64,000 nt of DNA from Burkholderiales bacterium (GCA_947474755.1 CANJJE010000011.1:30983-94982), one strand, 5' to 3'; counted from the first letter of the stretch, positions 4,924-53,812 are shown. The notes: generated by a model not told the origin, from the sequence alone. A program made the numbers and translations.

Positions 4924-4937
4924 CACAACATGTTGTG
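4924..4937. promoter_or_regulatory. perfect 14-bp palindrome CACAACATGTTGTG upstream of the FAAL-ACP-AOS operon (possible operator)
   Basis: Read directly in the 150-bp intergenic gap, about 65-75 nt upstream of the longest start of the 2979..4859 gene. No regulator or promoter boxes could be assigned. Confidence 0.25.
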
Positions 4938-4939
4938 AA

Positions 4940-4967
4940 AACCGCCAACGACGAACATTTGGCGGTT
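4940..4967 (-). terminator. possible rho-independent terminator after the FAAL-ACP fusion gene
   Basis: A 9-bp perfect stem (AACCGCCAA / TTGGCGGTT) with a 10-nt loop. On the minus strand the stem runs into TTTT. It lies 44 nt downstream of the stop at 5011. Confidence 0.4.
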
Positions 4968-5010
4968 GACTCACGCACGCTACTGACTATTTTGACCGAT
5001 TGCCATCGCT

Positions 5011-6966
5011 TCACGCTGTAGTGGTATCCAGAAACTCCGCAAGTTGCTCCAGCGTTGGGTAGTCGAACAAGTCGGTGACTTGGACACGCTGCGGAAACTC
5101 TAGCTCTATCGCTTCGTGGATCCGAGCCAAAGTGAGCGAGTTGAGGTCAATTTCCAGCAAGTTGGTCTGAGGTGTCAGTTCTCGGCCGACGATGAAGCCC
5201 GCGCAGATTTGCTGCAATCGTTGCTCCGTCGAGGTTCCCGTGCGTTGCTCGGCAACATTTCTTTGCGCAAGGAGCCGCTCAATTTCGGCCAGAGGTGCGT
5301 CGAATTCGCCCAGTTCGAACGCCTTGGCGAGCGCATAACGCTGTAATTTGCCGCTGCTGGTCTTCGGGATTTGCCGCACGGGCACCACATGTGCAACCTC
5401 CAGGCCGGTTTGCTGCAGCATCCTGCGCCGCAGTTCGATCACCTTGGGCAGGAACTCGGCGACCCCCGCCCTGTGAATCACGAAGAAGGCCAACTCCTCG
5501 GTATCAGCCACCGGGCCGCGCACGCCTGCTGCGGCGACGCGGTTGGCTTCAATATCGACGACCTCCGCCGCGATCCGTTCCAGATCGTGAGGGTAGTGGT
5601 TCTGCCCGTTGATGATGACCAGATCCTTCTCTCGCCCGGCTATGACCAACTGGCCTTCCAAGATGAAGCCCAGGTCGCCAGTCGCCAACCAGCCGTCGGC
5701 CGAGATGATCTCTGCGCTTCGCGCTGGATCTCGGAAATAGCCTGCGGTGACGTTGTCGCCGCGGATCAGCAAGTGACCCAGCATGCGCTCACCAAGTGTT
5801 TGCCCGGTCTCATCGACGATACGCAACTCGACCCCGCTCAACGGCAATCCGAGCTTGACCAGTTCGGATACCCGGCCGCCATTTTGTGCTTCGTGGCGCA
5901 CTGGCTCGCCGACGCGCAGCCGGGTTGGGTCGACGACGACGGTTTCGAGGGGGGTGCCGCGCATTGCGAAGCTGACAGCCAGGCTCGCTTCGGCAAGACC
6001 GTAGACGGCAAACATGGCGCTTGGCTTCAGGCCGTGGGGTGCCATCGTGCGCATGAAACGGCGGCAGACTTCCGCCGAGATCGGCTCCGCCCCGTTGAAG
6101 ATCAGTCGCACCGATGACAGGTCCAGGCCCTGCGGTGGTCGATGTGCGTACTGGCGAAGGTAGTGCTGGAAGCCGAAGTTCGGCGAACACAGCACGGTAC
6201 AGCGCCGCTGGCTGGCCAGATCCAGCCACAACAGCGGGCGCCGTGCGAACAGCTCGGTGCGCATGATCGCGTGGTTGATGCCGCTGGCCAGCTGGGTCAG
6301 GTGAAAGCCGATCAGCCCCATGTCGTGTGACAACGGCATCCAGCTCAGCACCGAGTCCTGGTCGGTGAAGGCGGCGCCTTTGATGATCGAGGCGATGTTC
6401 GCCGTGAGGTTGCGGTGCGTGAGCATCACGCCCTTCGGGTCGCCCGTCGAGCCCGATGAATACTGGATGAACGCGAGGTCCCTCGGATCAGGGTTCACCG
6501 GCACGCCTGGCTCGCCGGTGATGTCCAAGGCTCCCACGATCATCGTGCGCGCGCGAAGCTGCTGCCCTTCGTTGTCCAGGCGGTGTGTTGCGATGAAGTC
6601 GTCGAGGCGGTCCAGCGTCGGGGCGTCGATGCAGACCCGTGATTCATCGAGTTGTGCAAACACCCGCAGCAGCTTGCGCCAGTGTTCGTCTGCGACACCT
6701 GGTGCCAGCGGCACCGCCACGATGCCGCCGAGCACGCACGCCCAGAACATCTCCACGAAGCGTTCGTTGTCAGCAATGAACAGGATCAGCGTATCGCCAC
6801 GTTTGAGGCCATGGCGTTGCAGCGCGCCCAGCGCGCCAATGGCGCGCTGGCGCAGTCGCCGGAAACTCATCGTGCGCTGCTCGTTCTCGCCCTCGATGAA
6901 GGTGATCTGTCGATCCTCGCGCACGTCGGCCGGCAAGATCGCGTTGAGTGTCTCGAAGGGCAGCAT
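5011..6966 (-). CDS. fatty acyl-AMP ligase fused to a C-terminal carrier-protein (ACP/PCP) domain
   Basis: Motifs FIQYSSGSTGDPKG, WMPLSHDMGL, GWLATGDLG and TSSGKLQR are present. The C-terminal ~80 aa contain IDLNSLTLARIHEAIELEF (carrier Ser motif). The start is taken at the internal ATG 6966 (MLPFETLN), 11 nt after the P450 stop. The upstream extension to 7140 overlaps the P450 gene. Confidence 0.85.
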   Translation of the reverse strand: MLPFETLNAILPADVREDRQITFIEGENEQRTMSFRRLRQRAIGALGALQRHGLKRGDTLILFIADNERFVEMFWACVLGGIVAVPLAPGVADEHWRKLLRVFAQLDESRVCIDAPTLDRLDDFIATHRLDNEGQQLRARTMIVGALDITGEPGVPVNPDPRDLAFIQYSSGSTGDPKGVMLTHRNLTANIASIIKGAAFTDQDSVLSWMPLSHDMGLIGFHLTQLASGINHAIMRTELFARRPLLWLDLASQRRCTVLCSPNFGFQHYLRQYAHRPPQGLDLSSVRLIFNGAEPISAEVCRRFMRTMAPHGLKPSAMFAVYGLAEASLAVSFAMRGTPLETVVVDPTRLRVGEPVRHEAQNGGRVSELVKLGLPLSGVELRIVDETGQTLGERMLGHLLIRGDNVTAGYFRDPARSAEIISADGWLATGDLGFILEGQLVIAGREKDLVIINGQNHYPHDLERIAAEVVDIEANRVAAAGVRGPVADTEELAFFVIHRAGVAEFLPKVIELRRRMLQQTGLEVAHVVPVRQIPKTSSGKLQRYALAKAFELGEFDAPLAEIERLLAQRNVAEQRTGTSTEQRLQQICAGFIVGRELTPQTNLLEIDLNSLTLARIHEAIELEFPQRVQVTDLFDYPTLEQLAEFLDTTTA

Positions 6967-8309: not shown

Positions 8310-9014
8310 ATGCGCACGACAAGTGCCCCTGCGATGACCGTGTCGGTGCTGATCACCTCTGAGTTCGTGTTGTGGCCCGCGCTCGAATCGCAGTGGCTGG
8401 CGAGCCTGCCGTCGCCGCGGCGCCTGCAGATTGGCGCTTGGCCCGACGCGCAAGCGCGCCATCGCTCCCTGGTCGGCAGCCGCCTTCTGGTTCATGGGCT
8501 GCGGCGACTGGGGTACGGGGACGACGCACTGGCCACGCTGCGCTATCCAACGAATTCCCGACCGACGCTGGCATTGCCGGTCAGCTTCAGCCTGTCCCAT
8601 TGCGATGGACGCATCGTCTGTGCGCTGTCAACGCAGGGTGCGGTCGGCATCGATGTCGAGGCGCTGGGGGGTCTGGTCGCTGGAGACTTCCATCTGTACC
8701 TCAGTGCCGCCGAACGCGCTTGGGCCGGGCGCAGCACACGCCGTTTCTATTCGGTGTGGACCCGAAAGGAGGCCGTGGCCAAGGCGGCCAGCCAGAGGGG
8801 TCTGCGCGATGTGGCTCGGGTCGACACGACACACGGTGAGAACCTCGCTGCCTTTGCCGGAAGCCTGTGGCATACCGCCAGCGTGCCCGTTGGCCGGCGC
8901 CACGTGGCCCATCTGGCGCTGGCCGAGGCGCCTCGCCAACTGAGCTTTCATCGACTGGCCAGGTCGGTGTTGGAGCGCGACATGGCGGTCACGGAATCCG
9001 AGGCGGTACGGTAA
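8310..9014 (+). CDS. 4'-phosphopantetheinyl transferase (Sfp type)
   Basis: Motifs FSLSHCDGRIVCALS, GIDVE and FYSVWTRKEAVAKA are present. It is divergent from the P450 gene. ATG 8310 or 8334 is the likely start, and the 516-aa track ORF is an artefactual extension. Confidence 0.8.
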   Translation: MRTTSAPAMTVSVLITSEFVLWPALESQWLASLPSPRRLQIGAWPDAQARHRSLVGSRLLVHGLRRLGYGDDALATLRYPTNSRPTLALPVSFSLSHCDGRIVCALSTQGAVGIDVEALGGLVAGDFHLYLSAAERAWAGRSTRRFYSVWTRKEAVAKAASQRGLRDVARVDTTHGENLAAFAGSLWHTASVPVGRRHVAHLALAEAPRQLSFHRLARSVLERDMAVTESEAVR

Positions 9015-9052: not shown

Positions 9053-9829
9053 GTGAACAGACCCCATCGCGCGATCATCCTGAGTGCCGGACAAGGCAGT
9101 CGCCTGTTGCCCTTGACGGAGCAGATGCCGAAGTGCCTCATCGACCTAGGGGGACGCAGCATGCTTGAATGGCAACTGCGAGCGCTGGACCAAATGGGCG
9201 TCACCGAGGCCGTGGTGGTGACCGGTTTTTTCCCCGATCTGGTTGAGGCTGAGTTGAAGCGCCTGTCGCTCACGCAGTTGCGCGTACGCACGCTCTACAA
9301 CCCGTTCTACAAGCTGGCCGACAACCTCGCGAGTTGCTGGATGGCGCGCGCCGAGCTCAGCGGGCCGTGCATGATCCTCAACGGCGACACGCTGTTCGAG
9401 CCGGAGATTGCGGGCCGCTTGCTGGCCGCGCCCAGCGCACCCATCACGGTCACCATCGACCGCAAGGCGGCTTACGACGCTGACGACATGAAGGTCGTGA
9501 CTGAGGGGAATCACTTGCGAGCGATTGGCAAGGCGCTGACCGCCGATCGGGTCAATGGCGAGTCGATCGGTTTTCTCCGATTCGACGCAGACGGCGCGGC
9601 CTTGTTCGTCGCCGAACTCGAACGCACGATGCGCACGCCCGAGGGCCCGGGCCTGTGGTACCTCTCAGCCATCAATCGCCTCGCCAACGCGGGTGCCGAT
9701 GTCCGGGTCGTCTCTATCGAAGGACTGCAGTGGGGCGAGCTCGATTTCCCGGCTGATCTGGTTCAGGTACGGGAATTGGCGGCGACCTGGAACGTCGCGA
9801 AGCAGTCGGCGCCGGCCACGGTCGCGTGA
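9053..9829 (+). CDS. sugar/alcohol-phosphate nucleotidyltransferase (NTP_transferase fold)
   Basis: N-terminal AIILSAGQGSRLLPLTEQMPKCLIDLGGRSMLEW (the G-x-G-x-R-L signature of cytidylyl/uridylyl transferases). A GTG start at 9053 is assumed. Confidence 0.75.
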   Translation: MNRPHRAIILSAGQGSRLLPLTEQMPKCLIDLGGRSMLEWQLRALDQMGVTEAVVVTGFFPDLVEAELKRLSLTQLRVRTLYNPFYKLADNLASCWMARAELSGPCMILNGDTLFEPEIAGRLLAAPSAPITVTIDRKAAYDADDMKVVTEGNHLRAIGKALTADRVNGESIGFLRFDADGAALFVAELERTMRTPEGPGLWYLSAINRLANAGADVRVVSIEGLQWGELDFPADLVQVRELAATWNVAKQSAPATVA

Positions 9830-9830
9830 G

Positions 9831-10607
9831 TCAACGGTTGGCCAGTTCGCGTGCCAACTCCAGGTCTGCGGGCTTGTCCACATCGACGGCGGCTCGCCCA
9901 TCTCGCATCGTGACGATCGCGAGCCGCGCGCCGCCAGCGAGTGCACCCAGCCGTGCGGTCGCAGCAGACAGCGTCAGTCGGCCCAAGCGGTAGCGCAGAG
10001 CAAACAGCCAGCCCAGGCGCCGCATCATCCGAAGCGGCTCCTTGCGATGGCGCTCCAGTTCGCGCCAGAGTTCAACCACCCCTGCGGCCGCGGGTCGCGC
10101 CATCAGGAACAGATTGCATCCGGAGTAGTCGCCATCGGCAAAGCGCAGCCAGGTGCGCCGCGTGTGAGGCGCTGCGGCCTCCACAGCAGCGCGTCCGGCC
10201 AGCGCGGCGGTGACATCGGCGTCAGCCGGGCAGGCGGCTAGAAATTCTGTGAGCCAGGCTGTCTCCAGCAGGGCATGGTCGGCGGTCGTCACCAGCAGCG
10301 GGGCGCCCAGGTCGGCAAGCGCCGCTGCCACGGTAGCGCTGGGGCCTGAGGCGGTGGCCATCGTCGACAGCGGCTTGCCGAGCAACTCGGGCTGCAGTTC
10401 GGGCAGATCACGCAGCAACTCCGGCCGCTCGATCGCAACGACGATGCGTGTGACCTCCGGCACTGCGGCAAGTGCTGCCACCACGCGTTCGATCATCGTG
10501 CGGCCGCCCACCTCGATGAGCGCCTTGTGGCTGACGCCCGCATGCGCTGCCAGCGGATCGCCGCTGGTGCGGGTGCCAGCCAGCACCAACGCTGTCAGCG
10601 GCTTCAC
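9831..10607 (-). CDS. MobA-like nucleotidyltransferase family protein
   Basis: N-terminal ALVLAGTRTSGDPLA...KALIEVGGRTMIERV. The GTG start overlaps the stop of the upstream gene (GTGA). It is tail-to-tail with the 9053..9829 gene, with a 1-nt gap. Confidence 0.65.
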   Translation of the reverse strand: MKPLTALVLAGTRTSGDPLAAHAGVSHKALIEVGGRTMIERVVAALAAVPEVTRIVVAIERPELLRDLPELQPELLGKPLSTMATASGPSATVAAALADLGAPLLVTTADHALLETAWLTEFLAACPADADVTAALAGRAAVEAAAPHTRRTWLRFADGDYSGCNLFLMARPAAAGVVELWRELERHRKEPLRMMRRLGWLFALRYRLGRLTLSAATARLGALAGGARLAIVTMRDGRAAVDVDKPADLELARELANR

Positions 10608-11734
10608 GGCGCGAGCAATTTCTCGTAGACGCGGTAGGTCTTATAGGGCTTGGCGCCGAGCGATTCGATGACGTGCCGCATCGGACGATTGTCCTCGAGG
10701 ATCCACGACAGCTCGACCTGGCGCACGCCCTTGGCCCGCAAGCCCTTGCGCAGCGAGTCGATGACCAGGAACGGCGCCAGCCCGCCGGCCATGCTGCCGC
10801 TGAAACTGCGCCGGATGCCCATCAGCGGCACCCGAGCGGTGCGCGCACCACCCTTCAGCCGCCACAGCAGCTTCAGCCAGTTGAAGGGCAGCAGCCGACC
10901 GTTGAAATCGGCGATCAACTCGTTCAGGTTGGGCAGTGCGATGCCGAAGCCAACCGCCTCGCCATTCATTTCGACGATCGCCACGCAGGTCGGGTCGATC
11001 AGCATCTTCATGCTCTTGGCCATATGCGCAATCTCGGCCTTCGTGAAGGCGATGAAGCCCCAGTTCTGCGACCAGGCGTCATTGAAGATCGCGGTGACGG
11101 TGTCGAACTCTTCCAGGTAGCGAGACTTGTCGAGGTGGCGCACCGTCAGCGCCTGCGCCGTGCGGCTGTCGATCTTGCGGCGTGCAGCGCGCGGCAACTC
11201 GTGATCCATGTCGTACATGTAGGCGATCAGGTCCTTCGCCTTCCCATAGCCAAGGGCCTCGATGCGCGCCGCGGCGTAGCTCGGGTCATGGCCCATCAGC
11301 ATCACCGGTGGGGTGTCGAAGCCATCGACGAGCAATCCGGTCTCCTCGTTGATCGACAGGTTGAATGGCCCCAGGATGTGACGTTTGCCGCGCGTGCGCA
11401 GCCAGGCTTCAGCGGCGCTGAACAACGCGGCGAACACCTCGCCATCGTCCTCGGCGGCGATCATTCCGAAGTGCCCGACGTCGGGGTCCGCCACCAATCG
11501 GTCGATCTGAGCACTGATTCGCCCAACATCGCGGCCATCCCGGCGTGCCAGCCATAGCTGCGTCTCGGCATGCTGGAAATACGGGTTCTTGGCAGGCGAC
11601 AGGGCCTCGCGACGTTCCAATACCAGCGGTGGAACAAAGACCGGGTCGTTGACGTACAAGCGCGAGGGCAACGTGATGAAGCGGTCCAGTTCCGTCGGTG
11701 TTCCAACAGGGACGATCTCGATGCGACTGCTCAT
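10604..11734 (-). CDS. GNAT-like acyltransferase family protein (candidate lipid N-acyltransferase)
   Basis: 376 aa from the internal ATG 11734, which overlaps the upstream stop (ATGA). The N-terminus reads IEIVPVGTPTELDRFITLPSRLYVNDPVFVPPLVLERREALSPAKNPYF and continues through RDVGRISAQID. I recognise this only as a GNAT-related family often mis-annotated, so the function is inferred from context. Confidence 0.55.
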   Translation of the reverse strand: MSSRIEIVPVGTPTELDRFITLPSRLYVNDPVFVPPLVLERREALSPAKNPYFQHAETQLWLARRDGRDVGRISAQIDRLVADPDVGHFGMIAAEDDGEVFAALFSAAEAWLRTRGKRHILGPFNLSINEETGLLVDGFDTPPVMLMGHDPSYAAARIEALGYGKAKDLIAYMYDMDHELPRAARRKIDSRTAQALTVRHLDKSRYLEEFDTVTAIFNDAWSQNWGFIAFTKAEIAHMAKSMKMLIDPTCVAIVEMNGEAVGFGIALPNLNELIADFNGRLLPFNWLKLLWRLKGGARTARVPLMGIRRSFSGSMAGGLAPFLVIDSLRKGLRAKGVRQVELSWILEDNRPMRHVIESLGAKPYKTYRVYEKLLAP

Positions 11735-12945
11735 GCGATGGGCTTGGCTTGTACGGGGGCGAGGAAGCCCAGCCACAGCGTGCGGACGCTGTGCCAGACA
11801 AAGGTCAGTCCCTGCCATGCAGTAATGATGTACAGACCGGCGGAACCTTCGCCCACAAGCACGCTGAGCGCCATGATGGACATGGTGATGTTGCGCCGCG
11901 CGATGAAGCTACGCACCCACGCATCGAGTCGCGTTGCTGCATGCAGGGCGAAGCCAAGGCGATATTTGGCTATGCCAAGAACAATCCGGTCAGCTACATA
12001 AAACAGGGTCAGACAGATAGCAGCTTGATATATCGGGTCGCTTGTCGTCTGTGCGCCCAAACCCCAGGCGAACGCAAAGTACCAGAAGGGTGGGTGCACG
12101 ATGTCGGTGCCGTGATCCAGTGCATTGCCGATCTTCGAATCGGTCAAGGTCAATCGCGCCAGCTTGCCGTCGACGCTGTCGAGCACGCTCATGGCGTAGG
12201 CACAAAGGAAGCCGTACAGAAAGTGGCTGGTCATGAACAGCGGCACCACGGCAATGGCCAGCAGGATCGACACGATCGTCACCGTGTTGGGATGGATGCG
12301 CAGCCACACGCACAGGCGCACGAGCTGCCAGACGAGTGGCGGGTAGACATGGCGGGTCAACAAATCAGTTGAACCCTTGTAGTTGTCCCAGAACATCTGA
12401 CGCTGCAGGCGCTGGCGCGCATCGGCGTCGTGCACCGCGTAAATCCAATAGGGCAACGTGCGCCGCAGCTTGTTGATGTAAGCGGGGAACTTGGCTTCGT
12501 CGAGTGGCGCGATGCGCTCTGCTGCGACCAGGGCATCAGCTACTTCGCAGAGGCTTGCTGCCCCGGCAGGGATGGCGTCCCGCAATTCGGGCTGCAACAA
12601 AAGCACCACCGCTCGCTCATGCCCTTCTCCGCGCGTTGCCAGGCACGAGGACATGTCATCGGTGGTCAACAGGAAGTCGATCAGTCGAGGGTCGATCACA
12701 TTGGCGCCGTCGAGTGCGACGAGAGGCCCGTTGAGCAAAGCCTGGCGCAGGCGGCTGCCGAGCGCTGCGGTCGTGGTCTCGATCTGTGCGCCTGGCCAGG
12801 TCTTCGATGACGCGTCAGGCCCGGACAGCACGATGCGGGTGCCGTCCGCCACGCTGCCAACGCTGCGCCTCAATCGCTCGATCGGTGGGACGCCGAAAAG
12901 CGTTTCGGCCTGAGCCGTCGAGTGAGTATCGATCCAGAGATTCAT
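11731..12945 (-). CDS. CDP-alcohol phosphatidyltransferase family protein with ~190-aa N-terminal cytoplasmic extension
   Basis: Perfect family signature DSVDGKLAR-x8-G-x3-D-x3-D (DSVDGKLARLTLTDSKIGNALDHGTDIVH). The ATG at 12945 overlaps the LptG-like stop (ATGA). It is a paralogue of 16784..17896. Confidence 0.85.
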   Translation of the reverse strand: MNLWIDTHSTAQAETLFGVPPIERLRRSVGSVADGTRIVLSGPDASSKTWPGAQIETTTAALGSRLRQALLNGPLVALDGANVIDPRLIDFLLTTDDMSSCLATRGEGHERAVVLLLQPELRDAIPAGAASLCEVADALVAAERIAPLDEAKFPAYINKLRRTLPYWIYAVHDADARQRLQRQMFWDNYKGSTDLLTRHVYPPLVWQLVRLCVWLRIHPNTVTIVSILLAIAVVPLFMTSHFLYGFLCAYAMSVLDSVDGKLARLTLTDSKIGNALDHGTDIVHPPFWYFAFAWGLGAQTTSDPIYQAAICLTLFYVADRIVLGIAKYRLGFALHAATRLDAWVRSFIARRNITMSIMALSVLVGEGSAGLYIITAWQGLTFVWHSVRTLWLGFLAPVQAKPIA

Positions 12946-14006
12946 GGGCGCTCGCACGCCCGCAGGCGCCACAGTCCGATTGAGATGAACAACAAAGGGG
13001 CCGCCAGCGCTGTGACCGGTGGCGGAAGCTGGCCACTCGACCCCAGCGAGGCGACGACGCCATCAAACAGCAAGAAGCCCAGACCCAGCGCCAAGGAGAT
13101 CAACATCGTGCTGCCGCCGGCATCACCGCGGGTGAGCGTGGCGGCTGTCGGCAGGGCCAGCAGCAGCATGATGAACACCACGAGCGGCGCCGCGAACGAT
13201 CGGTACAAGGCGGTTTGGTAGTAGCTCAGGGGTTGTGATCCCACGCGCGAACCCACGATCACATCGGCGAGCATGATAGTGGAGAGGTAAGGACGGGCCA
13301 CGCCAAGGCGCAGCACCTCCTCCGGATGGAGGTTGGTCTGCCAAACCAGTGTGTCGTCATGAATCCGCCGGACACCAGACGGCTCGACGAGCAGTTCTGT
13401 CACGTCCTGCAATTGCCAGGCCTGACCATCCCACCGCGCGCTGGCCGCTCGCACGCGTGAGGTCAGCAGCCCCGCCTCGCTGGCGTAGACGCGTATGCCC
13501 TTCAACTGCAGCCCGTCCGGGCTGATGCTGTCGATCGACACCAGTCCACCACGTGTGTTCGCCCACAGCGGCTTCTTGACCTCTTCGGCGGGTGCGCTCG
13601 CGTTCCACCACTGCTTCAAGGCGATCTCGGCGCGCGGCAGGACCAGTTGCACCAGAGCCACCTGGAAGAGGGTGAAGACCAGCAACACGGGCAGCAGATA
13701 AGCCAGCATGCGCGTGAAGCTGACCCCGCAGGCGCGCATGGCCGAGATCTCGATCGTGCGCGCCATCGCATTCAGCGAAGTCATTGTTCCCAGCAGTACA
13801 GCCAGGGGCAACGCGAGCCCCAGCTCTGCCGGCAAGCGCAGCATGGCGTAATAGAGCAGGCCGCCGAAGCCTTGGCCGCGTTCGAAGATGTCGGTGGTGA
13901 CGTCGAGCAGTTCGAGCAACTGCATCATGGCCGTCAACACCGCCAGCATGGCCAGGATCTGCGTGCCGACACGGCGGCACAGGTACGCCTGCATCGTGCC
14001 GATCAT
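12942..14006 (-). CDS. LptF/LptG-family (YjgP/YjgQ) permease, LptG-like
   Basis: 354 aa. The N-terminus (YLCRRVGTQILAMLAVLTAMMQLLELLD) and MRACGVSFTRML are typical of the LPS export permease family, with six predicted hydrophobic segments. Confidence 0.8.
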   Translation of the reverse strand: MIGTMQAYLCRRVGTQILAMLAVLTAMMQLLELLDVTTDIFERGQGFGGLLYYAMLRLPAELGLALPLAVLLGTMTSLNAMARTIEISAMRACGVSFTRMLAYLLPVLLVFTLFQVALVQLVLPRAEIALKQWWNASAPAEEVKKPLWANTRGGLVSIDSISPDGLQLKGIRVYASEAGLLTSRVRAASARWDGQAWQLQDVTELLVEPSGVRRIHDDTLVWQTNLHPEEVLRLGVARPYLSTIMLADVIVGSRVGSQPLSYYQTALYRSFAAPLVVFIMLLLALPTAATLTRGDAGGSTMLISLALGLGFLLFDGVVASLGSSGQLPPPVTALAAPLLFISIGLWRLRACERP

Positions 14007-14046
14007 CGGCAGTCCCTGGCCGCGCGGGCGCGCGATAGCTGCGTGT

Positions 14047-15252
14047 TCATGGGCTGCGCGGTGCGCGGCGGCGCGCCCGGGTTCGGGTGCGGTCGATCAG
14101 CGCTTCGATCGCCATCACCGCGCGCAGCACCGGGTTGTCTCCTGGCCACGCCAGGCTGCTCCGGAATATCCAGACACTCAGCACGGCGAAGACGACGAAC
14201 GGCGTCCACACCGCTGCAGCAGGTGGAAGACGGCCTGATTGACCGAGACTGGCGCCCAGCTGGATCGCGTGATCGAGGCTCAGCAAGGCCACCGTGGCGA
14301 ACACCACGCCAGGCGTGCGGCGTCCCCGTTTGGATGCCATGCCCAGCGGCAATGCCAACAGGGGCAGGAACGGGAAGATGCACGCCCGCGCCAGCCGATT
14401 GTGAAACTCCGCAGCAGGCTTGGTCTGGTAGCCGTTCTGGTGCATGGTGTGCCAAAGCTCGGCCAGAGTCAGTTCGCGTACCGATCCGCCCCGCTCGGCG
14501 AGCGGCTCAGCCTTGGGCGAGAAGTCCCGGTCGGTCGCGCCCTGCACGAAACGAGACAGCGAGACGGCCGCACCGTCCTCCTTCGTGCCTTCGCTCACCC
14601 GCAGGACCAGCCCGTCTTCGAAACGCATCCGCAGCCCATCTGGCGTCGGGACCAGTCTGCCGCGAGCGGCTGTCAGCACGTCTTCGCTGTGGGCGCCACG
14701 TCGCTCCATGAACACGCCGCGCAGGCTCCTGCCATCAGGTTCGATCACCTCGGCGGTGAAGGTGACCCCGTGCCCGATGTCGACGAACCGGTTTTCTTCG
14801 ACACGCGAATCCCAGCCTGTCTGCAGCACCCGATTCACTACCACGTTGTAGCCGTAGCGTGCCATCGGCTGCAACTGGCCGTAGAGATACAGGCTGAACA
14901 TCGCCAGCAAAACGGCGAGGACGAAATAGGGTGCAGTGATGCGGGCGATCGATCGGCCGGTGACCAGCATCACATCGAGCTCGTTGTCATCGCACATGCG
15001 AGCGGCGGCCATGAAGATCGCGGCCGTGAAAGCCATGGGCAAGGCCAGACCCAGGTAGTGCGGAACCAGCGTTGCCGCCATCACTAGCACGATCGATGGC
15101 GGGGCACCGGCGGAGGCTGCCAGGTCAAACAATCGCAGCAGCCGTTCGAGGAGCTGTGCAAGAAGCAGCGCCAGTAGCGCCAGCGCCAGCGGACCGGCGA
15201 TCAGGCGCAGCGCGTAGCGGTCGAGTCGGTCGAAAGCAAACCAGGGACGCAA
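14047..15252 (-). CDS. LptF/LptG-family permease, LptF-like
   Basis: Contains FDRLDRYALRLIAGPLALALLALLLAQLLERLLRLFD and VMLVTGRSIARI. The start is uncertain: TTG 15252 lies 5 nt after the HIT stop, and the longer ORF to 15339 overlaps the HIT gene. Confidence 0.75.
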   Translation of the reverse strand: MRPWFAFDRLDRYALRLIAGPLALALLALLLAQLLERLLRLFDLAASAGAPPSIVLVMAATLVPHYLGLALPMAFTAAIFMAAARMCDDNELDVMLVTGRSIARITAPYFVLAVLLAMFSLYLYGQLQPMARYGYNVVVNRVLQTGWDSRVEENRFVDIGHGVTFTAEVIEPDGRSLRGVFMERRGAHSEDVLTAARGRLVPTPDGLRMRFEDGLVLRVSEGTKEDGAAVSLSRFVQGATDRDFSPKAEPLAERGGSVRELTLAELWHTMHQNGYQTKPAAEFHNRLARACIFPFLPLLALPLGMASKRGRRTPGVVFATVALLSLDHAIQLGASLGQSGRLPPAAAVWTPFVVFAVLSVWIFRSSLAWPGDNPVLRAVMAIEALIDRTRTRARRRAPRSP

Positions 15253-15256
15253 AGTC

Positions 15257-15715
15257 TCAGCCCGTTTGCCGCACCCAGGCGTCTCGCAACTGCGCCAGCA
15301 GCGCGTCGCTCGTGGCGGTATCGGGTGCCACCGCGGCATCGAGCATCGGTGGGCCGGGCCAGCCAGCGTCCGGGAAATCGGTGTTGCCGAAGCGGCGCGA
15401 GCCTTCGTAGCGCGGGATCACGTGAAAGTGCACGTCCGGGTCGACCATCATCAGCATCAGGTAGTTGATCCGCTCGTATCGCACGACATCGCGCAGCGTG
15501 CCCTCGATGCAGCGCACCACATCACGCATCTCGGCGTAGGCCTGAGGACTCACATCGGCAAACGCGCGCACAGGCTCGCGACAGATCAGCACCAGCGAGC
15601 CCAGCGCGGGCTGCTTCGGGCGCAGCAGGACGGTCCAGCGATCAGTCTGAGCGACTCGTGAGGCCGGGTCACCGAACTTGATCTCGGTGGCCGTCTTGGG
15701 TGCAGCATCAGCCAT
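15257..15715 (-). CDS. HIT (histidine triad) family protein
   Basis: Histidine triad DVHFHVIPRY. ATG at 15715. Confidence 0.8.
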   Translation of the reverse strand: MADAAPKTATEIKFGDPASRVAQTDRWTVLLRPKQPALGSLVLICREPVRAFADVSPQAYAEMRDVVRCIEGTLRDVVRYERINYLMLMMVDPDVHFHVIPRYEGSRRFGNTDFPDAGWPGPPMLDAAVAPDTATSDALLAQLRDAWVRQTG

Positions 15716-15734
15716 GGTCAATTCAAGTGTTTCC

Positions 15735-16658
15735 TCACGGGTGTTGATTATCTCCTGCGGTCATGGCGCGGATCCCCGGCAGGCTCAGCTCGTAGACGCT
15801 GTCTGTCTTGAATGCCTGGTCCGAGACCGACCATCGCCGCACGGTGACTTCGATCCTGCGCTCGCCAGCACCGCCGACCAGTCGCAGCCGGTGCCAGCGT
15901 GCGCCCTCGTCCTGCGGATTGGGCAGCGCCGTGGACGACGGAACGCACAGGCAGGGAATCGACCCGCTCGGCCCCGCGATCGTGTCCAGCCGCGCGCTGC
16001 GAGCGTGTCCGTGCAGGACGAGCTCGGCCCCGGTACGACGGAGCACGGCGCGCAAGTCGTCACCATCAGCGAGCGCCTTGCGCCAGCCGATGGCCCCGGC
16101 TGCCGCGGGATGGTGCAGCATCACGATGCGCACCTGCGCCGCATCACCTTCAGCACGGAGTGCCTGTTCGAGACGTGCAAGTTGATCGGTACCCAGGCGG
16201 CCCCGCGCCAGCAGCGGTGCGGTCGGTAGCGCCGAATTCAGGCCGATCAGCGAGACATCGCCCAAGCGATGCACGAACGGCCAGCCTTCCTGCAGTCGCG
16301 TCCAGCGGCTCCACAGGCCGAGGCCTTCAGCGGCAGGCACGGGCACCAGCGCGTCGTGGTTGCCGGGGACCAGGCTGATGCGCTCGGCTGGCACCAGCGC
16401 TGCCAGCCACTCGGCGGCTTGCCGGAATTCGCCGGGCAGCGAGAAGTTGGTGATGTCTCCGGTGATCAGCACCTGGTCGACCGCGTGGGCGCGCAGGTCC
16501 TGCGTCAAGGCGTCCAGCACATCGCCGCTTTGCACCGCGTGGCGCTTTTGCCAGGACCAGACGCTGAGCTGCCGCTTCGAGAACCGCTGGCGCCAGCTCA
16601 GATGCGGCTCGAAGGGCAGGTGCAGGTCGGAGATGTGGCCGAGCGTCAAATCGCTCAT
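15735..16658 (-). CDS. metallophosphoesterase (calcineurin-like)
   Basis: Motifs HISDLH, ITGDITN, VPGNHD, MLHHP and VLHGHAR are present. The start is taken at the internal ATG 16658 (MSDLTLGH). Confidence 0.8.
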   Translation of the reverse strand: MSDLTLGHISDLHLPFEPHLSWRQRFSKRQLSVWSWQKRHAVQSGDVLDALTQDLRAHAVDQVLITGDITNFSLPGEFRQAAEWLAALVPAERISLVPGNHDALVPVPAAEGLGLWSRWTRLQEGWPFVHRLGDVSLIGLNSALPTAPLLARGRLGTDQLARLEQALRAEGDAAQVRIVMLHHPAAAGAIGWRKALADGDDLRAVLRRTGAELVLHGHARSARLDTIAGPSGSIPCLCVPSSTALPNPQDEGARWHRLRLVGGAGERRIEVTVRRWSVSDQAFKTDSVYELSLPGIRAMTAGDNQHP

Positions 16659-16783
16659 CGATAATGCGCGGCTGTTGATTTGACTCGTTGTCTCAATATC
16701 CACGCCTTGGGAATTCACCCTCCGATGATGCCAAAAGAATTTTCGCCAGCGGGCAGTGGGTTCGGCTCTTGAGCGCCGCGCCA

Positions 16784-17896
16784 ATGCCAGAGCGCCGTAC
16801 GGCCGGCATCGTCGTCGGTGAGTCGCCGCTGCGTCTGTGGGGTCTCACCTCGACCCAGCGGCTGCAACGGCAGTTCGCGCGCGCGCAGGCCACTGCTGAT
16901 GCGCACGACGCGAAACGATGGGTGCTGGTGCGCGCCGACTGGGTCTACGACGACGCCTTTGTGCGCAGTCTCGCCTCGGCCGATGAAGACCTGGCGCTGA
17001 CTGCACCCGATGGGGGCGTCATCGCCCTGAGCCTGTCGGCCGCGTCACCGTCGGCGACCGAAGCATCGGAGATGCTGGCGGACCGGCGCGCGCCACCCGG
17101 CGCTCGCCTCGTGACGCCTGCGCAATTGGCCGATGGATACAACGACGTGCTGCGCAAGCGCGAGCCACCGTACCTGATCCCGCTGACGGCAGCCGAACTG
17201 CCCGCCATCGAGAAGCGCATCTTCGCGGGCTCCTACAAGGGCGTCACCGATGTGGTCACGCTGCGCGTCTGGCCCGCCCCCGCGCGGGCGGTGACGCGGT
17301 GGTGCGCCAACAACGGCATCTCGCCGAACCAGGTCACTTCGGCCAGCCTGGTGCTGGTCTTCGCGGCCATGTGGCTGTTCTGGACCGGTCACTACGGCTG
17401 GGGCCTGTTGGCGGCCTGGGTCATGACCTTCCTCGACACCGTCGACGGCAAGCTCGCCCGGGTGACGCTGACCTCGACCCGCTGGGGCAATGTGTTCGAT
17501 CATTCGATCGACCTGATCCACCCGCCCTTCTGGTGGTGGGCATGGATCGTGGGTCTGCCGGCCGCAGGGTTCAGCTTGACCCAAACCGGTCTGGTGCTGA
17601 CGGTGATCGTCGGTGGCTATGTGCTGCAGCGTATCGAGGAAGGCATCTTCATGGCCTGCTTCAAGATGGACATGCACGTCTGGCAGCGCTTCGACAGCTG
17701 GTTGCGCCTGTACACCGCCCGGCGCAATCCGAACCTGCTGATCCTGAGCGCTTCCCTGCTGGCCGGGCGTCCTGACATCGGCATCCTCGTGGTGGCCTGG
17801 TGGACGGCGATCTGTCTGTTCATCCATGCGCTGCGCATCGTGCAGGCGGCCTTTGCGCGGCGGCGCGGGCCACTGCGGTCGTGGTTGTCGGTGTGA
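16784..17896 (+). CDS. CDP-alcohol phosphatidyltransferase family protein with N-terminal extension (paralogue of 11731..12945)
   Basis: Signature DTVDGKLARVTLTSTRWGNVFDHSIDLIH. Its N-terminal region is colinear with the paralogue (LWGLTSTQRLQRQ versus LFGVPPIERLRRS). ATG 16784 is chosen, and the longest ORF starts at 16688. Confidence 0.85.
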   Translation: MPERRTAGIVVGESPLRLWGLTSTQRLQRQFARAQATADAHDAKRWVLVRADWVYDDAFVRSLASADEDLALTAPDGGVIALSLSAASPSATEASEMLADRRAPPGARLVTPAQLADGYNDVLRKREPPYLIPLTAAELPAIEKRIFAGSYKGVTDVVTLRVWPAPARAVTRWCANNGISPNQVTSASLVLVFAAMWLFWTGHYGWGLLAAWVMTFLDTVDGKLARVTLTSTRWGNVFDHSIDLIHPPFWWWAWIVGLPAAGFSLTQTGLVLTVIVGGYVLQRIEEGIFMACFKMDMHVWQRFDSWLRLYTARRNPNLLILSASLLAGRPDIGILVVAWWTAICLFIHALRIVQAAFARRRGPLRSWLSV

Positions 17897-18840
17897 GCGA
17901 AGAGCCGCTGCGCGACCTCCTGGCTGAGGAACTGCGGTGCGAGTTGCCAGCTGCTGTCACTCAGCTGGCCGCACAGCTGGCCCAGCGCGCCAACGGTGAG
18001 GCCGCGGCAGTACTGTTCTATGGATCCAACTTGCGCGATGCGCGCCTGGACGGTGTCCTCGACTTCTATGTCTTGCTTGATCGTGTGAGTGCGTGGCCGG
18101 GCCCGCGGCTGGCTTCGCTGGCGAACTGGCTGCTGCCGCCGAATGTCGGCTACATCGAGACCACGGTGGATGGGCATGCCCTGCGAGCAAAGTACGCGCT
18201 GCTCAGCGCGACTCAGTTTCGGAGGGGGGTGTCGCCTGCCGCGCTCGACACCACCCTGTGGGCGCGCTTCTCACAACCCAGCTGCTGCGCCTGGGCGCGC
18301 AGCGAGGCCGATCGCGAAGCGGTCACCGATGCGGTGCGGCAGGCGGTGGTCACGGCGGCACGCTGGGCTGCCGAGCTGGGCCCCGCGCACGGCGATGCGC
18401 TCTTGTTCTGGCGGACGCTGTTCGCCAAGACCTATGCGGCCGAGTTGCGAGTGGAGAAGGGCGCCCGTGGCGACGACCTGGTGGCGCGTGACGCCGAGCG
18501 ATATGCGCGCCTCTTGCCCCAGGCATGGCGCGCAGCGGGGATCGCCTTCGAGACCACTGCAGCCGGGCAGTTGGCGCCGCGTCTGACGCTGTCGTCGCGC
18601 GACGCGGCCGCGCGACGCTGGGCTGTGCGCCGTCGCCTGGGCAAGCCACTGAACATCGCGCGGCTGCTGAAGGCCGCGTTCACCTTCGATGGCGCGATGG
18701 ACTACGCCATGTGGAAAGTCGAGCGCCATTCAGGCGTGCGATTGGAAATCACCGATTGGCAGCGCCGTCATCCGCTGCTGGCCGCACCCGGAATCTATTG
18801 GCGCCTTCGCGAACGCAACGTATGGAGACGCAGCGGTTGA
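17893..18840 (+). CDS. conserved hypothetical protein, possibly Tam41/Mmp37-like nucleotidyltransferase
   Basis: The GTG start overlaps the stop of the CDP-alcohol transferase gene (GTGA). The blocks FYGSNL, LDFYVLLD, NVGYIETTVDGHALRAKYALLS and LWARFSQP resemble, from memory, the conserved blocks of mitochondrial CDP-DAG synthase Tam41. The coding call is firmer than the functional call. Confidence 0.45.
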   Translation: MSEEPLRDLLAEELRCELPAAVTQLAAQLAQRANGEAAAVLFYGSNLRDARLDGVLDFYVLLDRVSAWPGPRLASLANWLLPPNVGYIETTVDGHALRAKYALLSATQFRRGVSPAALDTTLWARFSQPSCCAWARSEADREAVTDAVRQAVVTAARWAAELGPAHGDALLFWRTLFAKTYAAELRVEKGARGDDLVARDAERYARLLPQAWRAAGIAFETTAAGQLAPRLTLSSRDAAARRWAVRRRLGKPLNIARLLKAAFTFDGAMDYAMWKVERHSGVRLEITDWQRRHPLLAAPGIYWRLRERNVWRRSG

Positions 18841-19934
18841 TGAACTCCATCAGCGACCGTTCATCGGGGGGCTCCGTCGCGAACGCCGTTCCGGACAGGC
18901 CGGGACTCGCGTGGTGGTGCAACTCTACGGACCTGCGGATTGCGAGCGTCCGCATGAGAGCTGCGCTCTTGATGCGGATGCTGTCACAACGAGGCATTGA
19001 GACGACGTGGTTCAGCGGGAAAGAAATCTCGCGCTACCGCTGCGTGGTCGTCCGCAAGCGTTACGACGATGCCACCGTGAAACAGTTGAGCCGCTTCAAA
19101 GGGAGCGGTGGGCGACTGGTTCTGGATCTCTGTGACAACAATTTCCTGTCCAAATCCCAGAATCAACATGAACTTCGTAAAGTCAAGAATCTGCGTTTGC
19201 TGGCGACATTGGCTGATGTCATTGTTGCCGCGTCAGAGCCGCTTGCGCAGATTGCCGCTCGGGAGTGCCCCGCGACTGCTGGCCGCATTGTGGTCATTGG
19301 TGACATACCAGATGACCTTTCCATCGTCGAAAACTCCCTATGGCGCAGGACCTGGAACAACTGGTGCGCATACCGCGAGTTGAACCATTTGGAGAGGGTA
19401 GCTCCAGCAGGAGTTGTCAGACTCGTTTGGTTCGGGGCTTCTGCGGCCAAGAAGCAGCTTTCAGGGATGGCGGATTTGGCCCGAATATGCCCAATGCTCG
19501 CGGATTTGGGTCAGGAGTACCCCTTGCATTTGACGGTTATCAGTAACAACGTCAATTTTTATCGCAAGTACATAAAGCCAGCGCTGCCATCGAGCCGATA
19601 CATAGAGTGGAATTCAGCTACCTTTGACTATCTTTTGCGCCAGCAGCACATTGCCTTGATACCGGCCCAGCACAACGAGTACACCGTCTGCAAGAGCGAC
19701 AACCGCGTGGTCACGGCCTTGCGCGCAGGTCTGGCCGTGGTGGCCGATCCGGTGCCCAGCTACGTGCCCTATGGCGAGGTGATCCAGATCGGCTCCATGG
19801 AGGCAGGCCTGCGTCACTACCTCGCCGACCCATCAAAACGCATCGCAGATGCCGCACAAGGGCAGGCGAGAGTCCTGCACTCAGGGCAGGCCCAGCGCAT
19901 CGTGGCGCAGTGGATCGAGGTTTGCGGCTTCTGA
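18840..19934 (+). CDS. hypothetical protein, glycosyltransferase-like (GT-B-like pattern)
   Basis: 364 aa. The ATG overlaps the upstream stop by 1 nt (an alternative ATG lies at 18822). GC is lower than the flanks. No firm motif was recognised. Confidence 0.5.
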   Translation: MNSISDRSSGGSVANAVPDRPGLAWWCNSTDLRIASVRMRAALLMRMLSQRGIETTWFSGKEISRYRCVVVRKRYDDATVKQLSRFKGSGGRLVLDLCDNNFLSKSQNQHELRKVKNLRLLATLADVIVAASEPLAQIAARECPATAGRIVVIGDIPDDLSIVENSLWRRTWNNWCAYRELNHLERVAPAGVVRLVWFGASAAKKQLSGMADLARICPMLADLGQEYPLHLTVISNNVNFYRKYIKPALPSSRYIEWNSATFDYLLRQQHIALIPAQHNEYTVCKSDNRVVTALRAGLAVVADPVPSYVPYGEVIQIGSMEAGLRHYLADPSKRIADAAQGQARVLHSGQAQRIVAQWIEVCGF

Positions 19935-19961: not shown

Positions 19962-21083
19962 TCAAGGCGCTGGGCAGGGTGACGCATTGCCACGCAGGAA
20001 ATCCACAATGGCGTCGGCGCCGCGGGCTGCAGAGGCCTCGCCGGGCATGATGCTGAAGGTCTCCGCCACGTAATGCCGCTGGGCGGGCAAGTACTCCGAG
20101 TGGCTGGCAAATGCTGCCGCGATCTTCTCCCGAAAATCGTCTAGCCCGTTGATCACGGGCCCCAGATTCCAGCACTCATAGTCGGGATTTCCACGCCAGT
20201 CAGGGTTGTGGGAGTCAAGAAAAAGGCAGGGCCGAGGACGTGTGACGAATTCGGCGACCTGGCTGCTCACATCGCCAAGATACATGTCGGCCGAAGATGT
20301 ATATGTCATGTCAATACTATTTCTGCTCCCGTGATCAATATGGAGATTTGGAAGAATGCGGTAGGGTTCGAAAAATTTATAATTTATATCTAATGATGTG
20401 TTAAACAATCTAAAATGCGGCGCAAATATCAAATTATATTGATCGGAACTGGCAAAGAAATTCAATACATCAACCCCATGTTTTTTCCATGACGATAATG
20501 GATCCTGAAAGTGCGGGTTGTAAAGCACAGTGGGTCTTCCATTATCAAATAACGCATGCGGATCGTGAGATGGGCCCATCCAATCGAATTTGGCATAAAC
20601 GCCAATTGAATAGTTTCCCGGACGAATCAAGCCGGCATTCAAGAGGCGACGTTCGATTTTGCGGCCAGCGACCAGCACGAAATCAAACTGATCGATATCG
20701 GCTGCAAAACCGACCGCGCGATCGCCGGCGCCATGACGGGTCCAGATCAAGCGCGTGTCCCCCAGGCCGAGCTGGCGCATGAACAGAGACGTTCGCTCTG
20801 GCACCACGATCGCATTGAAAGAGCGCAGGTAGCGGAGGTTCCTGACCATCATCATTTTCTTTCCGGGGTTCGCCTGCAACCACGGCCGTGACAATGCATC
20901 GACGCGCACTGACGCAGCGGGTGCGTGCTTGTGCAGCAGACTTGTGATGAAGTCTCGGTGCGCTGGCGTCGCTGCCGCCACATGCACTTCGACATCGGGA
21001 TGCCGCCGTGCCATCTCAGCGGCGATCGGCAGGGAGTGGTAGACCTGATGCAATTGCGCGAAGTACGGGAAGACGACTCTCAT
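19962..21083 (-). CDS. TagB/TagF-like CDP-glycerol glycerophosphotransferase family protein (putative)
   Basis: The blocks PTVLYNPHF, IFAPHFRLF and YLGDVSSQVAEF resemble the TagF-family catalytic region. The start is taken at the internal ATG 21083 (MRVVFPYF). Confidence 0.5.
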   Translation of the reverse strand: MRVVFPYFAQLHQVYHSLPIAAEMARRHPDVEVHVAAATPAHRDFITSLLHKHAPAASVRVDALSRPWLQANPGKKMMMVRNLRYLRSFNAIVVPERTSLFMRQLGLGDTRLIWTRHGAGDRAVGFAADIDQFDFVLVAGRKIERRLLNAGLIRPGNYSIGVYAKFDWMGPSHDPHALFDNGRPTVLYNPHFQDPLSSWKKHGVDVLNFFASSDQYNLIFAPHFRLFNTSLDINYKFFEPYRILPNLHIDHGSRNSIDMTYTSSADMYLGDVSSQVAEFVTRPRPCLFLDSHNPDWRGNPDYECWNLGPVINGLDDFREKIAAAFASHSEYLPAQRHYVAETFSIMPGEASAARGADAIVDFLRGNASPCPAP

Positions 21084-21264
21084 GTGGTTTGGTCCTGCGA
21101 CAACATCTTCTGCTTCCTTCGACCCGTTTGTCTGAGGGTGGTGCGCCCCTGTGGTTGTCAATCGCCCCCGCCCTCGCGTTGCGCGATTCCTTGCTTGCGG
21201 CTCCCCTGCCGAGCGGCTCGCTTCGCGTCCCCGTCATCGACTCCGCGCTTCGTCCTCTGAATCC

Positions 21265-22383: not shown

Positions 22384-22396
22384 CGGTGGCGTTCCT

Positions 22397-29170: not shown

Positions 29171-29261
29171 AAGGCTCGCGTGCACACGGTTTCAGCACAG
29201 CAGTCCGTAACCCAGACTGCGGTCGTGAGTATCAAGTTTCAGCGCGATGGATGACACCCTG

Positions 29262-53764: not shown

Positions 53765-53812
53765 TGTGAATTCCTGGTTGATGAGCTTGTACCAGCAGCT
53801 AATTTTTAGAAA

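Follow-up and report, generated by a model that had tools for sequence, protein, structure and literature searches.

A probable ceramide phosphoglycerate locus of a Burkholderiales bacterium with two CpgA-like CDP-alcohol phosphotransferases

Gene order and head group of the block

Two paralogous cytidine diphosphate (CDP)-alcohol phosphotransferases, here termed transferases A and B, are encoded within positions 9053-18840 of a 64,000-nucleotide stretch of DNA from a Burkholderiales bacterium (GCA_947474755.1, CANJJE010000011.1:30983-94982; hereafter the window, G+C ~65%), where they lie among genes for two nucleotidyltransferases, a HIT-fold protein and a calcineurin-like metallophosphoesterase. 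The locus raises the question of which lipid such an enzyme set would build and what a second transferase of the same architecture would contribute. An earlier note on this DNA had read the set as a machine that puts phospho-alcohol head groups, such as inositol phosphate or glycerol phosphate, on a cluster lipid by way of CDP-activated alcohols. That general idea is upheld by synteny with a known locus: the block is very probably the Burkholderiales counterpart of Caulobacter crescentus CC_1152-CC_1161, that is, of the head-group assembly and inner-membrane export part of the ceramide (poly)phosphoglycerate pathway. The novelty that the note implied falls away with this syntenic orthology. 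A pathway described in 2022-2026 is found in a new host group, and what is new is an extra clade of transferases and a number of extra tailoring genes.

In Caulobacter the locus for CPG2 or ceramide diphosphoglycerate, the ceramide phosphoglycerate (CPG) that bears a second phosphoglycerate, extends over CC_1152-CC_1168 and includes cpgA-D, cerS and lptF2/G2 (PMC9393093, PMC11324152, PMC12275187, bioRxiv 10.64898/2026.04.12.717747). Comparison of the window proteins with four Caulobacter loci by tblastn revealed one-to-one counterparts of CC_1152 to CC_1159 and of CC_1161, in identical order and on identical strands, with identities spanning 33-65% (Table 1). The published gene numbering and domain descriptions (CC_1152-CC_1165 map) agree with the window genes, comprising LicC-like (CC_1152) and CofC-like (CC_1153) nucleotidyltransferases, LptG2/LptF2 (CC_1155/CC_1156), a HIT motif (CC_1157), a calcineurin-type phosphoesterase (CC_1158), a CDP-alcohol transferase domain (CC_1159) and a Tam41-type protein (CC_1161). 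Pfam matches confirm the two nucleotidyltransferases, the HIT protein and the metallophosphoesterase where the earlier note had placed them. The minus-strand genes run head to tail in the order metallophosphoesterase, HIT, LptF2, LptG2, A, CerS and MobA-like, with 4-nt overlaps at three junctions (lptG2/A, A/cerS and cerS/MobA-like gene). The cpgA (transferase B) and cpgC genes also overlap by 4 nt, and this pair diverges from the metallophosphoesterase operon across 125 bp. The overlaps and the head-to-tail arrangement support co-expression.

The likeness extends beyond the block, since orthologues of Spt (50-51% identity to Caulobacter), AasR (45-46%), CerR (44-47%) and the acyl carrier protein (ACP; its counterpart is a PP-binding gene called in locus L002) are found in the same window, as is a CC_1167 orthologue. 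The window differs from the Caulobacter locus in five respects: transferase A is inserted between cerS and lptG2; the kinase gene does not lie between cpgA and cpgC, a distant DAGK-type gene being located 14 kb off; genes for a cytochrome P450, an AMP-binding-ACP didomain protein (FAAL-ACP) and a 4'-phosphopantetheinyl transferase (PPTase) are inserted beside cpgD; NeuB, CMP-transferase-HAD and glycosyltransferase genes adjoin; and the host is a member of the Burkholderiales, not an alphaproteobacterium.

To survey the module across genomes, one genome per species was scanned with an alignment of B-type proteins, which yielded 80 loci, several of them from Caulobacter, Phenylobacterium and Brevundimonas. 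Loci were compared as 21-kb stretches, and counts are given over 81 related loci. The module recurs in these 81 loci, drawn from proteobacteria of the alpha, beta and gamma classes and from two metagenome-assembled genomes (MAGs), one of Terriglobia and one of Myxococcota; in 40-60 of the loci it is accompanied by syntenic Spt, ACP, CerR and CerS genes. This association bears on whether the enzymes decorate lipid A or lipopolysaccharide (LPS) instead of a sphingolipid. The window does contain LptF_LptG, LpxL-type Lip_A_acyltrans, MsbA-type ABC_membrane/ABC_tran and WaaA-type Kdo transferase matches, as an LPS function would have it. However, the block keeps its synteny with the genes for ceramide, its LptF/G copies are orthologous by position to the LptF2/G2 pair dedicated to sphingolipids, and Caulobacter mutants of these genes lose CPG/CPG2, not LPS (PMC11324152), making an LPS substrate highly improbable.

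The product of the first gene of the block belongs to the NTP_transf_3/NTP_transferase families of Pfam, and its best relative in a PDB sequence search is LicC (1jyk, E = 1.5e-11), with the GQGSR...PK...NGD residues present. Its identity to the proteins at the CC_1152 position of Caulobacter loci L038, L039 and L044 is 63-65%. The 258-aa reading from position 9053 retains the GQGSR loop (residues 12-16), while the public 222-aa call (L002, 13117-13785) starts after it; thus the start at 9053 is the more plausible. Caulobacter CpgD, itself LicC-like, forms CDP-glycerate from cytidine triphosphate (CTP) and 2-phospho-D-glycerate, as established by biochemistry and crystal structures (PMC12275187, PMC13228409), and its critical residues are named in PMC12275187. 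By analogy, the window enzyme most likely makes the CDP-activated head-group donor CDP-glycerate. The syntenic orthology with the CPG2 locus therefore suggests that the head group is most likely phosphoglycerate from this donor, and not inositol phosphate or glycerol phosphate. The logic resembles that of teichoic-acid synthesis by TagD and TagF, an analogy drawn by the CpgD authors themselves, in that a soluble cytidylyltransferase makes a CDP-activated three-carbon unit and a membrane-associated transferase repeatedly adds units to a lipid-linked acceptor. The protein families are unrelated, however, and a PF01066 transferase and a glycerate, not glycerol, unit are involved here. The second nucleotidyltransferase (NTP_transf_3, 50 bits) is the counterpart of CC_1153, which is required for CPG2 in Caulobacter (PMC11324152).

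A system based on CDP-inositol or CDP-glycerol, which would put phosphoinositol or phosphoglycerol on ceramide and so match the head groups suggested by the earlier note, is very unlikely. The best NCBIfam models of A and B are archaetidylinositol-phosphate synthase, phosphatidylinositol-phosphate (PIP) synthase and IPCT/DIPPS, and the best structural matches are AF2299, PIP synthases and IPCT-DIPPS. Those PIP-synthase structures whose alignment spans the whole chain (5d91/5d92, 6wmv/6wm5) are presumably chimeras with the AF2299 N-domain and, if so, are not independent matches. The closest structural relative of CpgD is, according to the literature, also an inositol-1-phosphate cytidylyltransferase, from Thermotoga. 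In contrast, the NCBIfam scores are 27-49 bits against cut-offs of 170-580, an inositol-1-phosphate synthase domain was not found in any ORF (open reading frame) scanned by Pfam, and the nucleotidyltransferase is an orthologue of the phosphoglycerate-using Caulobacter CpgD at 63-65% identity. PIP and archaetidylinositol-phosphate synthases (NF045883, NF040950) are the closest curated models for the membrane domain and have an identical catalytic motif, but the scores are 34-49 bits against cut-offs of 170-180. Moreover, those enzymes combine a CDP-lipid with a soluble alcohol, whereas CpgA is proposed to combine a soluble CDP-alcohol with a lipid acceptor, in reverse polarity.

Two transferases with predicted nucleotidyltransferase-like N-terminal domains

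Transferase B comprises 370 stop-free residues and its motif reads LDTVDGKLARVTLTSTRWGNVFDHSIDLIHPP, while the 404 residues of transferase A, likewise stop-free, include LDSVDGKLARLTLTDSKIGNALDHGTDIVHPP. Both are exact instances of D-x2-DG-x2-AR-x8-G-x3-D-x3-D, as the earlier note had read them, and the motif residues are invariant in both family alignments. PF01066 is matched with 45.4 bits by B and 35.5 bits by A (cut-off 22). The two proteins are paralogues, also as previously proposed, with 34% identity over the C-terminal 279 aa (E = 3e-43). The membrane domain of A would be polytopic and helical, judging from the alignment. In the B model, long helices occupy residues 181-359 in a run, and the model superposes on the membrane domains of AF2299 and PgsA1.

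Of the two paralogues, which the earlier note took to suggest two successive or alternative head groups, only B corresponds to a known step. Aligned by domain with Caulobacterales CpgA, B is 40-43% identical in the N-domain (E ~1e-24) and 60-66% in the membrane domain. Its gene is divergent from the metallophosphoesterase gene and upstream of cpgC, an arrangement found likewise in 69-72 of the 81 loci. In Caulobacter, CpgA is genetically required for the second phosphoglycerate, CPG2 being lost and CPG kept in its absence (PMC11324152, PMC9393093). Homologues of B outnumber those of A and include Acidovorax-, Variovorax- and Janthinobacterium-labelled records; 252 clusters of a library clustered at 50% identity match B at E < 1e-30, nearly all over the full length. 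These homologues are mostly 375 aa long, so the true start of B may be 15 nt upstream. Transferase A presents a different picture. Only its membrane domain aligns with Caulobacter CpgA (35-40% identity), the N-domain is without a match, and no counterpart of A was found in any Caulobacterales locus retrieved. The A clade has no characterised orthologue and is not covered in the literature found.

Many homologues of both proteins are auto-annotated as 'phosphatidylglycerophosphate synthase', which would make A and B the ordinary PgsA/PssA enzymes of bulk glycerophospholipid synthesis. On the DNA covered, the window and the 21-kb loci, there is next to no probability of this. With the NCBIfam model for pssA the score is 18.2 bits (cut-off 107), and PgsA models are not matched; both proteins are about twice as long as PgsA-type enzymes (185-209-residue chains, 6h53, 7drk) and have an extra domain; and B is orthologous to CpgA, the loss of which in Caulobacter removes only CPG2 (PMC11324152).

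The soluble N-terminal regions of A and B comprise ~180-195 aa each, in agreement with the colinear region of ~190 aa that the earlier note had described. Pairwise BLAST is significant for the last ~40 juxtamembrane residues only (E = 0.006), and the colinearity of the alpha/beta parts thus stands on family alignments and predicted folds, not on pairwise similarity. Residues 1-196 of A were modelled with AlphaFold from 18 homologues (predicted local distance difference test, pLDDT, 86.5). In a Foldseek search of the PDB, every functionally described structure among the 50 matches listed is a nucleotidyltransferase, including RmlA, glucose-1-phosphate cytidylyltransferase, KdsB, IspD, CofC-like 2i5e and, further down, Archaeoglobus IPCT (2xme), with a best E of 2.6e-6, query-normalised TM-scores of 0.39-0.62 and identities of 8-15%. 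For the full-length model of B (pLDDT 81.8), the closest PDB structure is AF2299 (4o6n, 4q7c, 4o6m; E ~1e-9 over 373 aligned columns), and IPCT-DIPPS (4mnd) is also matched. The proposed resemblance to IPCT/DIPPS-type enzymes, and the suspicion that the extensions are degenerate nucleotidyltransferase folds, are both consistent with these models.

As in AF2299 and IPCT/DIPPS of Archaeoglobus fulgidus, a cytoplasmic nucleotidyltransferase-like domain precedes a CDP-alcohol phosphotransferase membrane domain. The differences are nevertheless considerable. Identity of B to these structures is only 13-15%, with TM-scores of ~0.5, and the IPCT/DIPPS model NF041135 (cut-off 580) gives 35.6 bits for A, 27.1 for B and 51.3 for the LicC-like protein. 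The acceptor is presumably a lipid here, not inositol phosphate. The intact GxGxR...K signature of IPCT/DIPPS is lacking in both N-domains, and nucleotidyltransferases are encoded by separate genes. A has THSTAQAET in place of the Gly-rich loop and lacks the Lys that follows; in B the loop is vestigial (GESPLRLWGLT) and the Lys segment is missing. Profile-profile comparison of the A and B N-domains with the CpgD-like enzyme of the window aligned 28-33 columns around the 'GD' strand, at E = 0.09 and 0.0019, and was not significant, so that the relation to cytidylyltransferases is structural only. These N-domains are thus predicted to be degenerate nucleotidyltransferase folds without an intact NTP-binding signature, and may be relics of a cytidylyltransferase. 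The fused domain is probably non-catalytic, the activity being supplied by the separate genes, and its role would probably be to bind the CDP-alcohol or hold it in place, or to serve as a docking site for CpgD or the CC_1153-type enzyme. Natural fusions among metagenomic representatives join CpgA-like proteins to DAGK-like kinases (P0259, P0275, P0327) or to CpgC-like proteins (P0280, P0354), while P0277 combines an N-terminal MobA-like nucleotidyltransferase, a degenerate nucleotidyltransferase and a CDP-alcohol transferase in one chain. Some could be assembly or gene-calling artefacts; the fusions otherwise provide independent support for functional coupling.

Transferase A is present in 20 of the 81 loci. 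Its carriers are Burkholderiales, Nevskiales/Steroidobacteraceae-type gammaproteobacteria, a Terriglobia MAG, a Dongiaceae MAG and three alphaproteobacteria (a Rhodospirillales MAG, Thermohalobaculum and Sulfitobacter), and full-length homologues of 60-84% identity occur in Xylophilus, Ramlibacter, Piscinibacter, Rhizobacter and many metagenomes. The gene occupies the slot between cerS and lptG2, except for the L016 copy and the second copy of L017. The latter locus, from Panacagrimonas perspica, has two A-type copies (4924-6102 and 17393-18592) besides the B type. In a neighbour-joining tree of 97 sequences with 100 bootstrap replicates, the 22 A-type proteins form one bipartition (bootstrap 100/100), and the mean p-distance between the A and B types is 0.68, against 0.41 inside A and 0.43 inside B. 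The separate clades, the diversity inside each and the co-retention of both types point to A as a paralogue of long standing whose function has diverged, and not to a recent duplication.

These observations weigh on the simplest explanation of two transferases, namely that A and B are redundant isoenzymes of the CPG-to-CPG2 step and that A adds nothing to the product. Such redundancy would accord with the shared motif and two-domain architecture, with the location of both genes in one locus and with the lack of a gene linked exclusively to A. It is unlikely in view of the low identity of A to B, the two comparably diverse clades, and the retention of both A and B in loci of beta-, gamma- and alphaproteobacteria and of Terriglobia, which fits long-term functional divergence. 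Redundancy is accordingly ranked below the possibility, itself tentative, that A attaches another phospho-alcohol, either in addition (a third phosphoglycerate, for instance) or as an alternative. Two candidate partners of A were rejected. The P450 and FAAL-ACP genes are also present in loci without A (L006, L023) and absent from many loci with it, and a fatty-acid-hydroxylase-type gene that adjoins A in alphaproteobacterial loci is likewise found where A is missing. A ~250-aa His-box membrane protein of the fatty-acid hydroxylase/sterol desaturase type is encoded directly behind cerS in 11 loci, those of alphaproteobacteria and of the Terriglobia MAG (e.g. L078, 3673-4707; L081, 3994-4746), whether or not A is present, and not in the window.

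Accessory enzymes, proposed pathway and points against it

The HIT protein scores 25.2 bits on PF01230 (cut-off 21.5), and its best solved relative is 2oik (E = 2e-8). The motif reads D-V-H-F-H-V-I-P, with Asp for the first His and the second and third His kept. Its gene is present in 71 of the 81 loci, more often than that of the phosphoesterase. S1 Text of PMC11324152 assigns a HIT motif to CC_1157 and also records the scattered locus of Sphingomonas wittichii, in which four consecutive genes (Swit_1306-1309) are orthologous to CC_1153, CC_1159, CC_1157 and CC_1152. In Zymomonas, CC_1157, CC_1158 and CC_1159 are all missing together. The conservation, the Sphingomonas gene order and the joint loss in Zymomonas suggest that the HIT protein may cooperate in the CpgA step, where its substrate could be a by-product or intermediate linked to cytidine monophosphate (CMP). 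In the metallophosphoesterase (PF00149), the DxH (DLH), GD, GNHD, HH and GH motifs are all readable in the translation, and a CC_1158 mutant has a partial CPG2 defect (PMC11324152).

For the ceramide synthase candidate no Pfam match was obtained, and the assignment derives from full-length identity to the Caulobacterales gene at the cerS position. The CpgC-like protein gave no Pfam match (E up to 5) and no PDB sequence match; CpgC is placed in the Tam41/Mmp37 type (IPR015222) in S1 Text of PMC11324152. Genetic work in Caulobacter showed that CpgC is needed for the first phosphoglycerate, that the second requires CpgD as well as CpgA and CC_1153, and that CpgB is the ceramide kinase (PMC11324152). 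LptF2/G2, which associate with LptB in a complex, have been implicated in the export of sphingolipids (bioRxiv 10.64898/2026.04.12.717747).

A pathway can be proposed on this basis, in which the activity of CpgD, the genetic roles of CpgA, CpgB, CpgC, CC_1153 and CC_1158, and the function of LptF2/G2 are carried over by analogy from the Caulobacter literature. Spt, ACP, acyl-ACP synthetase, CerR and ceramide synthase would form ceramide, which the DAGK-type kinase would convert to ceramide-1-phosphate and the CpgC orthologue to ceramide phosphoglycerate. The CpgD orthologue would supply CDP-glycerate from CTP and 2-phosphoglycerate, and transferase B, through its DxxDGxxAR...D...D site, would transfer phosphoglycerate from it onto the lipid with release of CMP. 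The MobA-like nucleotidyltransferase, the metallophosphoesterase and the HIT protein may act on the same nucleotide-activated intermediates. Finally, LptF2/LptG2 (12942-15252) would extract the finished lipid from the inner membrane, bound for the outer membrane. For the function of A, the HIT protein and the N-domains we infer roles of our own: transferase A, as a second enzyme of B's architecture, would add one more or an alternative phospho-alcohol unit. The fuller version, in which A catalyses an uncharacterised third head-group step beyond CPG2 (yielding a tri-phosphoglycerate or a different phospho-alcohol), the HIT protein is a pathway enzyme acting on a CMP-linked intermediate and the N-domains channel CDP-glycerate from CpgD, is possible but doubtful.

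Several points weigh against this pathway. The step assigned to B, from CPG to CPG2 with CDP-glycerate, is a genetic inference even for Caulobacter CpgA, as is the role of CpgC. The kinase is only ~27% identical to Caulobacter CpgB, which is encoded between cpgA and cpgC, and is relocated. The P450, FAAL-ACP and PPTase genes, and the nearby NeuB, CMP-transferase-HAD and glycosyltransferase genes, are additional to the Caulobacter set, so that the end product could be a lipid substantially different from CPG2. Among the loci, no gene co-occurring exclusively with A was found that would point to its substrate. The Caulobacter authors class CC_1157 as probably unrelated, since its mutants show no cofitness with the other genes there, and this counts against an essential role of the HIT protein. 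Lastly, a search of the literature on sphingolipids in Burkholderiales, Variovorax and Acidovorax returned nothing relevant, and no Comamonadaceae-type lipid data were found.

Neighbouring genes and significance

Coordinates of the block and of the related genes of the window are collected in Table 1.

Table 1. Positions of the block genes and of the ceramide genes in the window, with the evidence for each assignment (identities are to Caulobacter counterparts unless Caulobacterales are named).
Feature	Position	Strand	Evidence
Serine palmitoyltransferase-like gene, ACP (2689-2982) and acyl-ACP synthetase (CC_1162, CC_1163, CC_1165 orthologues)	1487-4859	-	Pfam Aminotran_1_2, AMP-binding
CpgD-type cytidylyltransferase (CC_1152/CCNA_01210 orthologue)	9053-9829	+	63-65% identity over ~250 aa
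MobA/CofC-like nucleotidyltransferase (CC_1153 orthologue)	9831-10607	-	45-49% identity
Candidate bacterial ceramide synthase (CC_1154 orthologue)	10604-11734	-	45-57% identity to Caulobacterales, full length; 45-55% in the four Caulobacter loci
Transferase A, divergent second CpgA-like CDP-alcohol phosphotransferase	11731-12945	-	Motif and PF01066; no characterised orthologue
A N-terminal soluble domain, residues 1-195	12361-12945	-	Nucleotidyltransferase-like fold (AlphaFold model and Foldseek)
LptG2 (CC_1155 orthologue), sphingolipid-specific Lpt permease subunit	12942-14006	-	Pfam LptF_LptG 216 bits; 33-35% identity
LptF2 (CC_1156 orthologue)	14047-15252	-	Pfam LptF_LptG 218 bits; 38-42% identity
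HIT-fold protein (CC_1157 orthologue)	15257-15715	-	Pfam HIT 25.2 bits; 51-56% identity
Calcineurin-like metallophosphoesterase (CC_1158 orthologue)	15735-16658	-	Pfam Metallophos 50.5 bits; 41-45% identity
Divergent intergenic region, 125 bp, putative promoter region	16659-16783		Gene coordinates only
Transferase B, CpgA orthologue (CC_1159/CCNA_01217)	16784-17896	+	49-55% identity to Caulobacterales over 358-367 of 370 aa; 49-53% in the four Caulobacter loci
CpgC orthologue (CC_1161)	17893-18840	+	45-51% identity
NAD-dependent epimerase-family reductase, CerR (CC_1164) orthologue	26126-27118	-	Pfam Epimerase; 44-47% identity at cerR position
DAGK_cat lipid kinase, candidate ceramide kinase (CpgB function)	31937-33403	-	Pfam DAGK_cat; adjoins desaturase and MsbA-like ABC gene

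Between the acyl-ACP synthetase gene and cpgD, the window encodes the AMP-binding + PP-binding didomain protein (5011-6966), the cytochrome P450 (6978-8282) and the 4'-phosphopantetheinyl transferase (8334-9014). These genes are absent from the Caulobacter loci and present only in some Burkholderiales and Steroidobacteraceae loci, and they suggest a modified (hydroxylated or unusual) acyl or long-chain-base moiety. On the other side, adjoining cpgC, region 19962-24744 contains the CC_1167-like gene (19962-21083), CDP-glycerol glycerophosphotransferase-like according to the literature, followed by genes for a GT4 glycosyltransferase, a CMP-sugar synthetase-HAD phosphatase fusion and a NeuB-type synthase. 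NeuB and CMP-transferase-HAD genes adjoin the cluster also in L010, L013 and L015. The enzymes of this region may together decorate the sphingolipid or LPS with a nonulosonic- or Kdo-like sugar. An ORF of 469 aa (18525-19934) overlaps the 3' end of cpgC by ~315 nt and has a weak glycosyltransferase-like Pfam match; a translated stretch of L005 matches it from end to end at 60% identity, yet the public call keeps the last 146 aa only.

Further downstream, a minus-strand block (28112-34080) comprises genes for an Elm1-like protein (PF06258), a lipid A acyltransferase-like protein, an MsbA-like ABC transporter, the DAGK-type kinase and a fatty-acid desaturase family protein. In loci of Burkholderiales and gammaproteobacteria it accompanies the sphingolipid cluster, but in another arrangement (inverted relative to Xylophilus, L001). 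Region 44948-59174, unrelated to the block, encodes a 2938-aa RTX-repeat protein with 15 HemolysinCabind stretches and a weak N-terminal lipase class 3 match, followed by HlyD-type and C39-peptidase ABC type I secretion genes; G+C falls to 0.55-0.57 at 52-56 kb.

The findings do not overturn the current understanding of the pathway. They offer handles on the biochemistry of CpgA and CpgC in the form of the extra paralogue, the CpgA fusions, the AF2299-like fold and the HIT gene with its strong conservation. CPG2-type anionic sphingolipids can serve as a partial substitute for LPS in the outer membrane of Caulobacter, where polymyxin targets them. The module is widespread in full, synthesis and export genes alike, among Burkholderiales (loci of Variovorax, Piscinibacter and Xylophilus; CpgA homologues in records labelled Acidovorax and Janthinobacterium) and occurs in several gammaproteobacterial lineages, thus extending the likely range of this class of outer-membrane lipids. 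If transferase A indeed catalyses a third head-group step, the hosts that carry it would make an anionic sphingolipid beyond CPG2.

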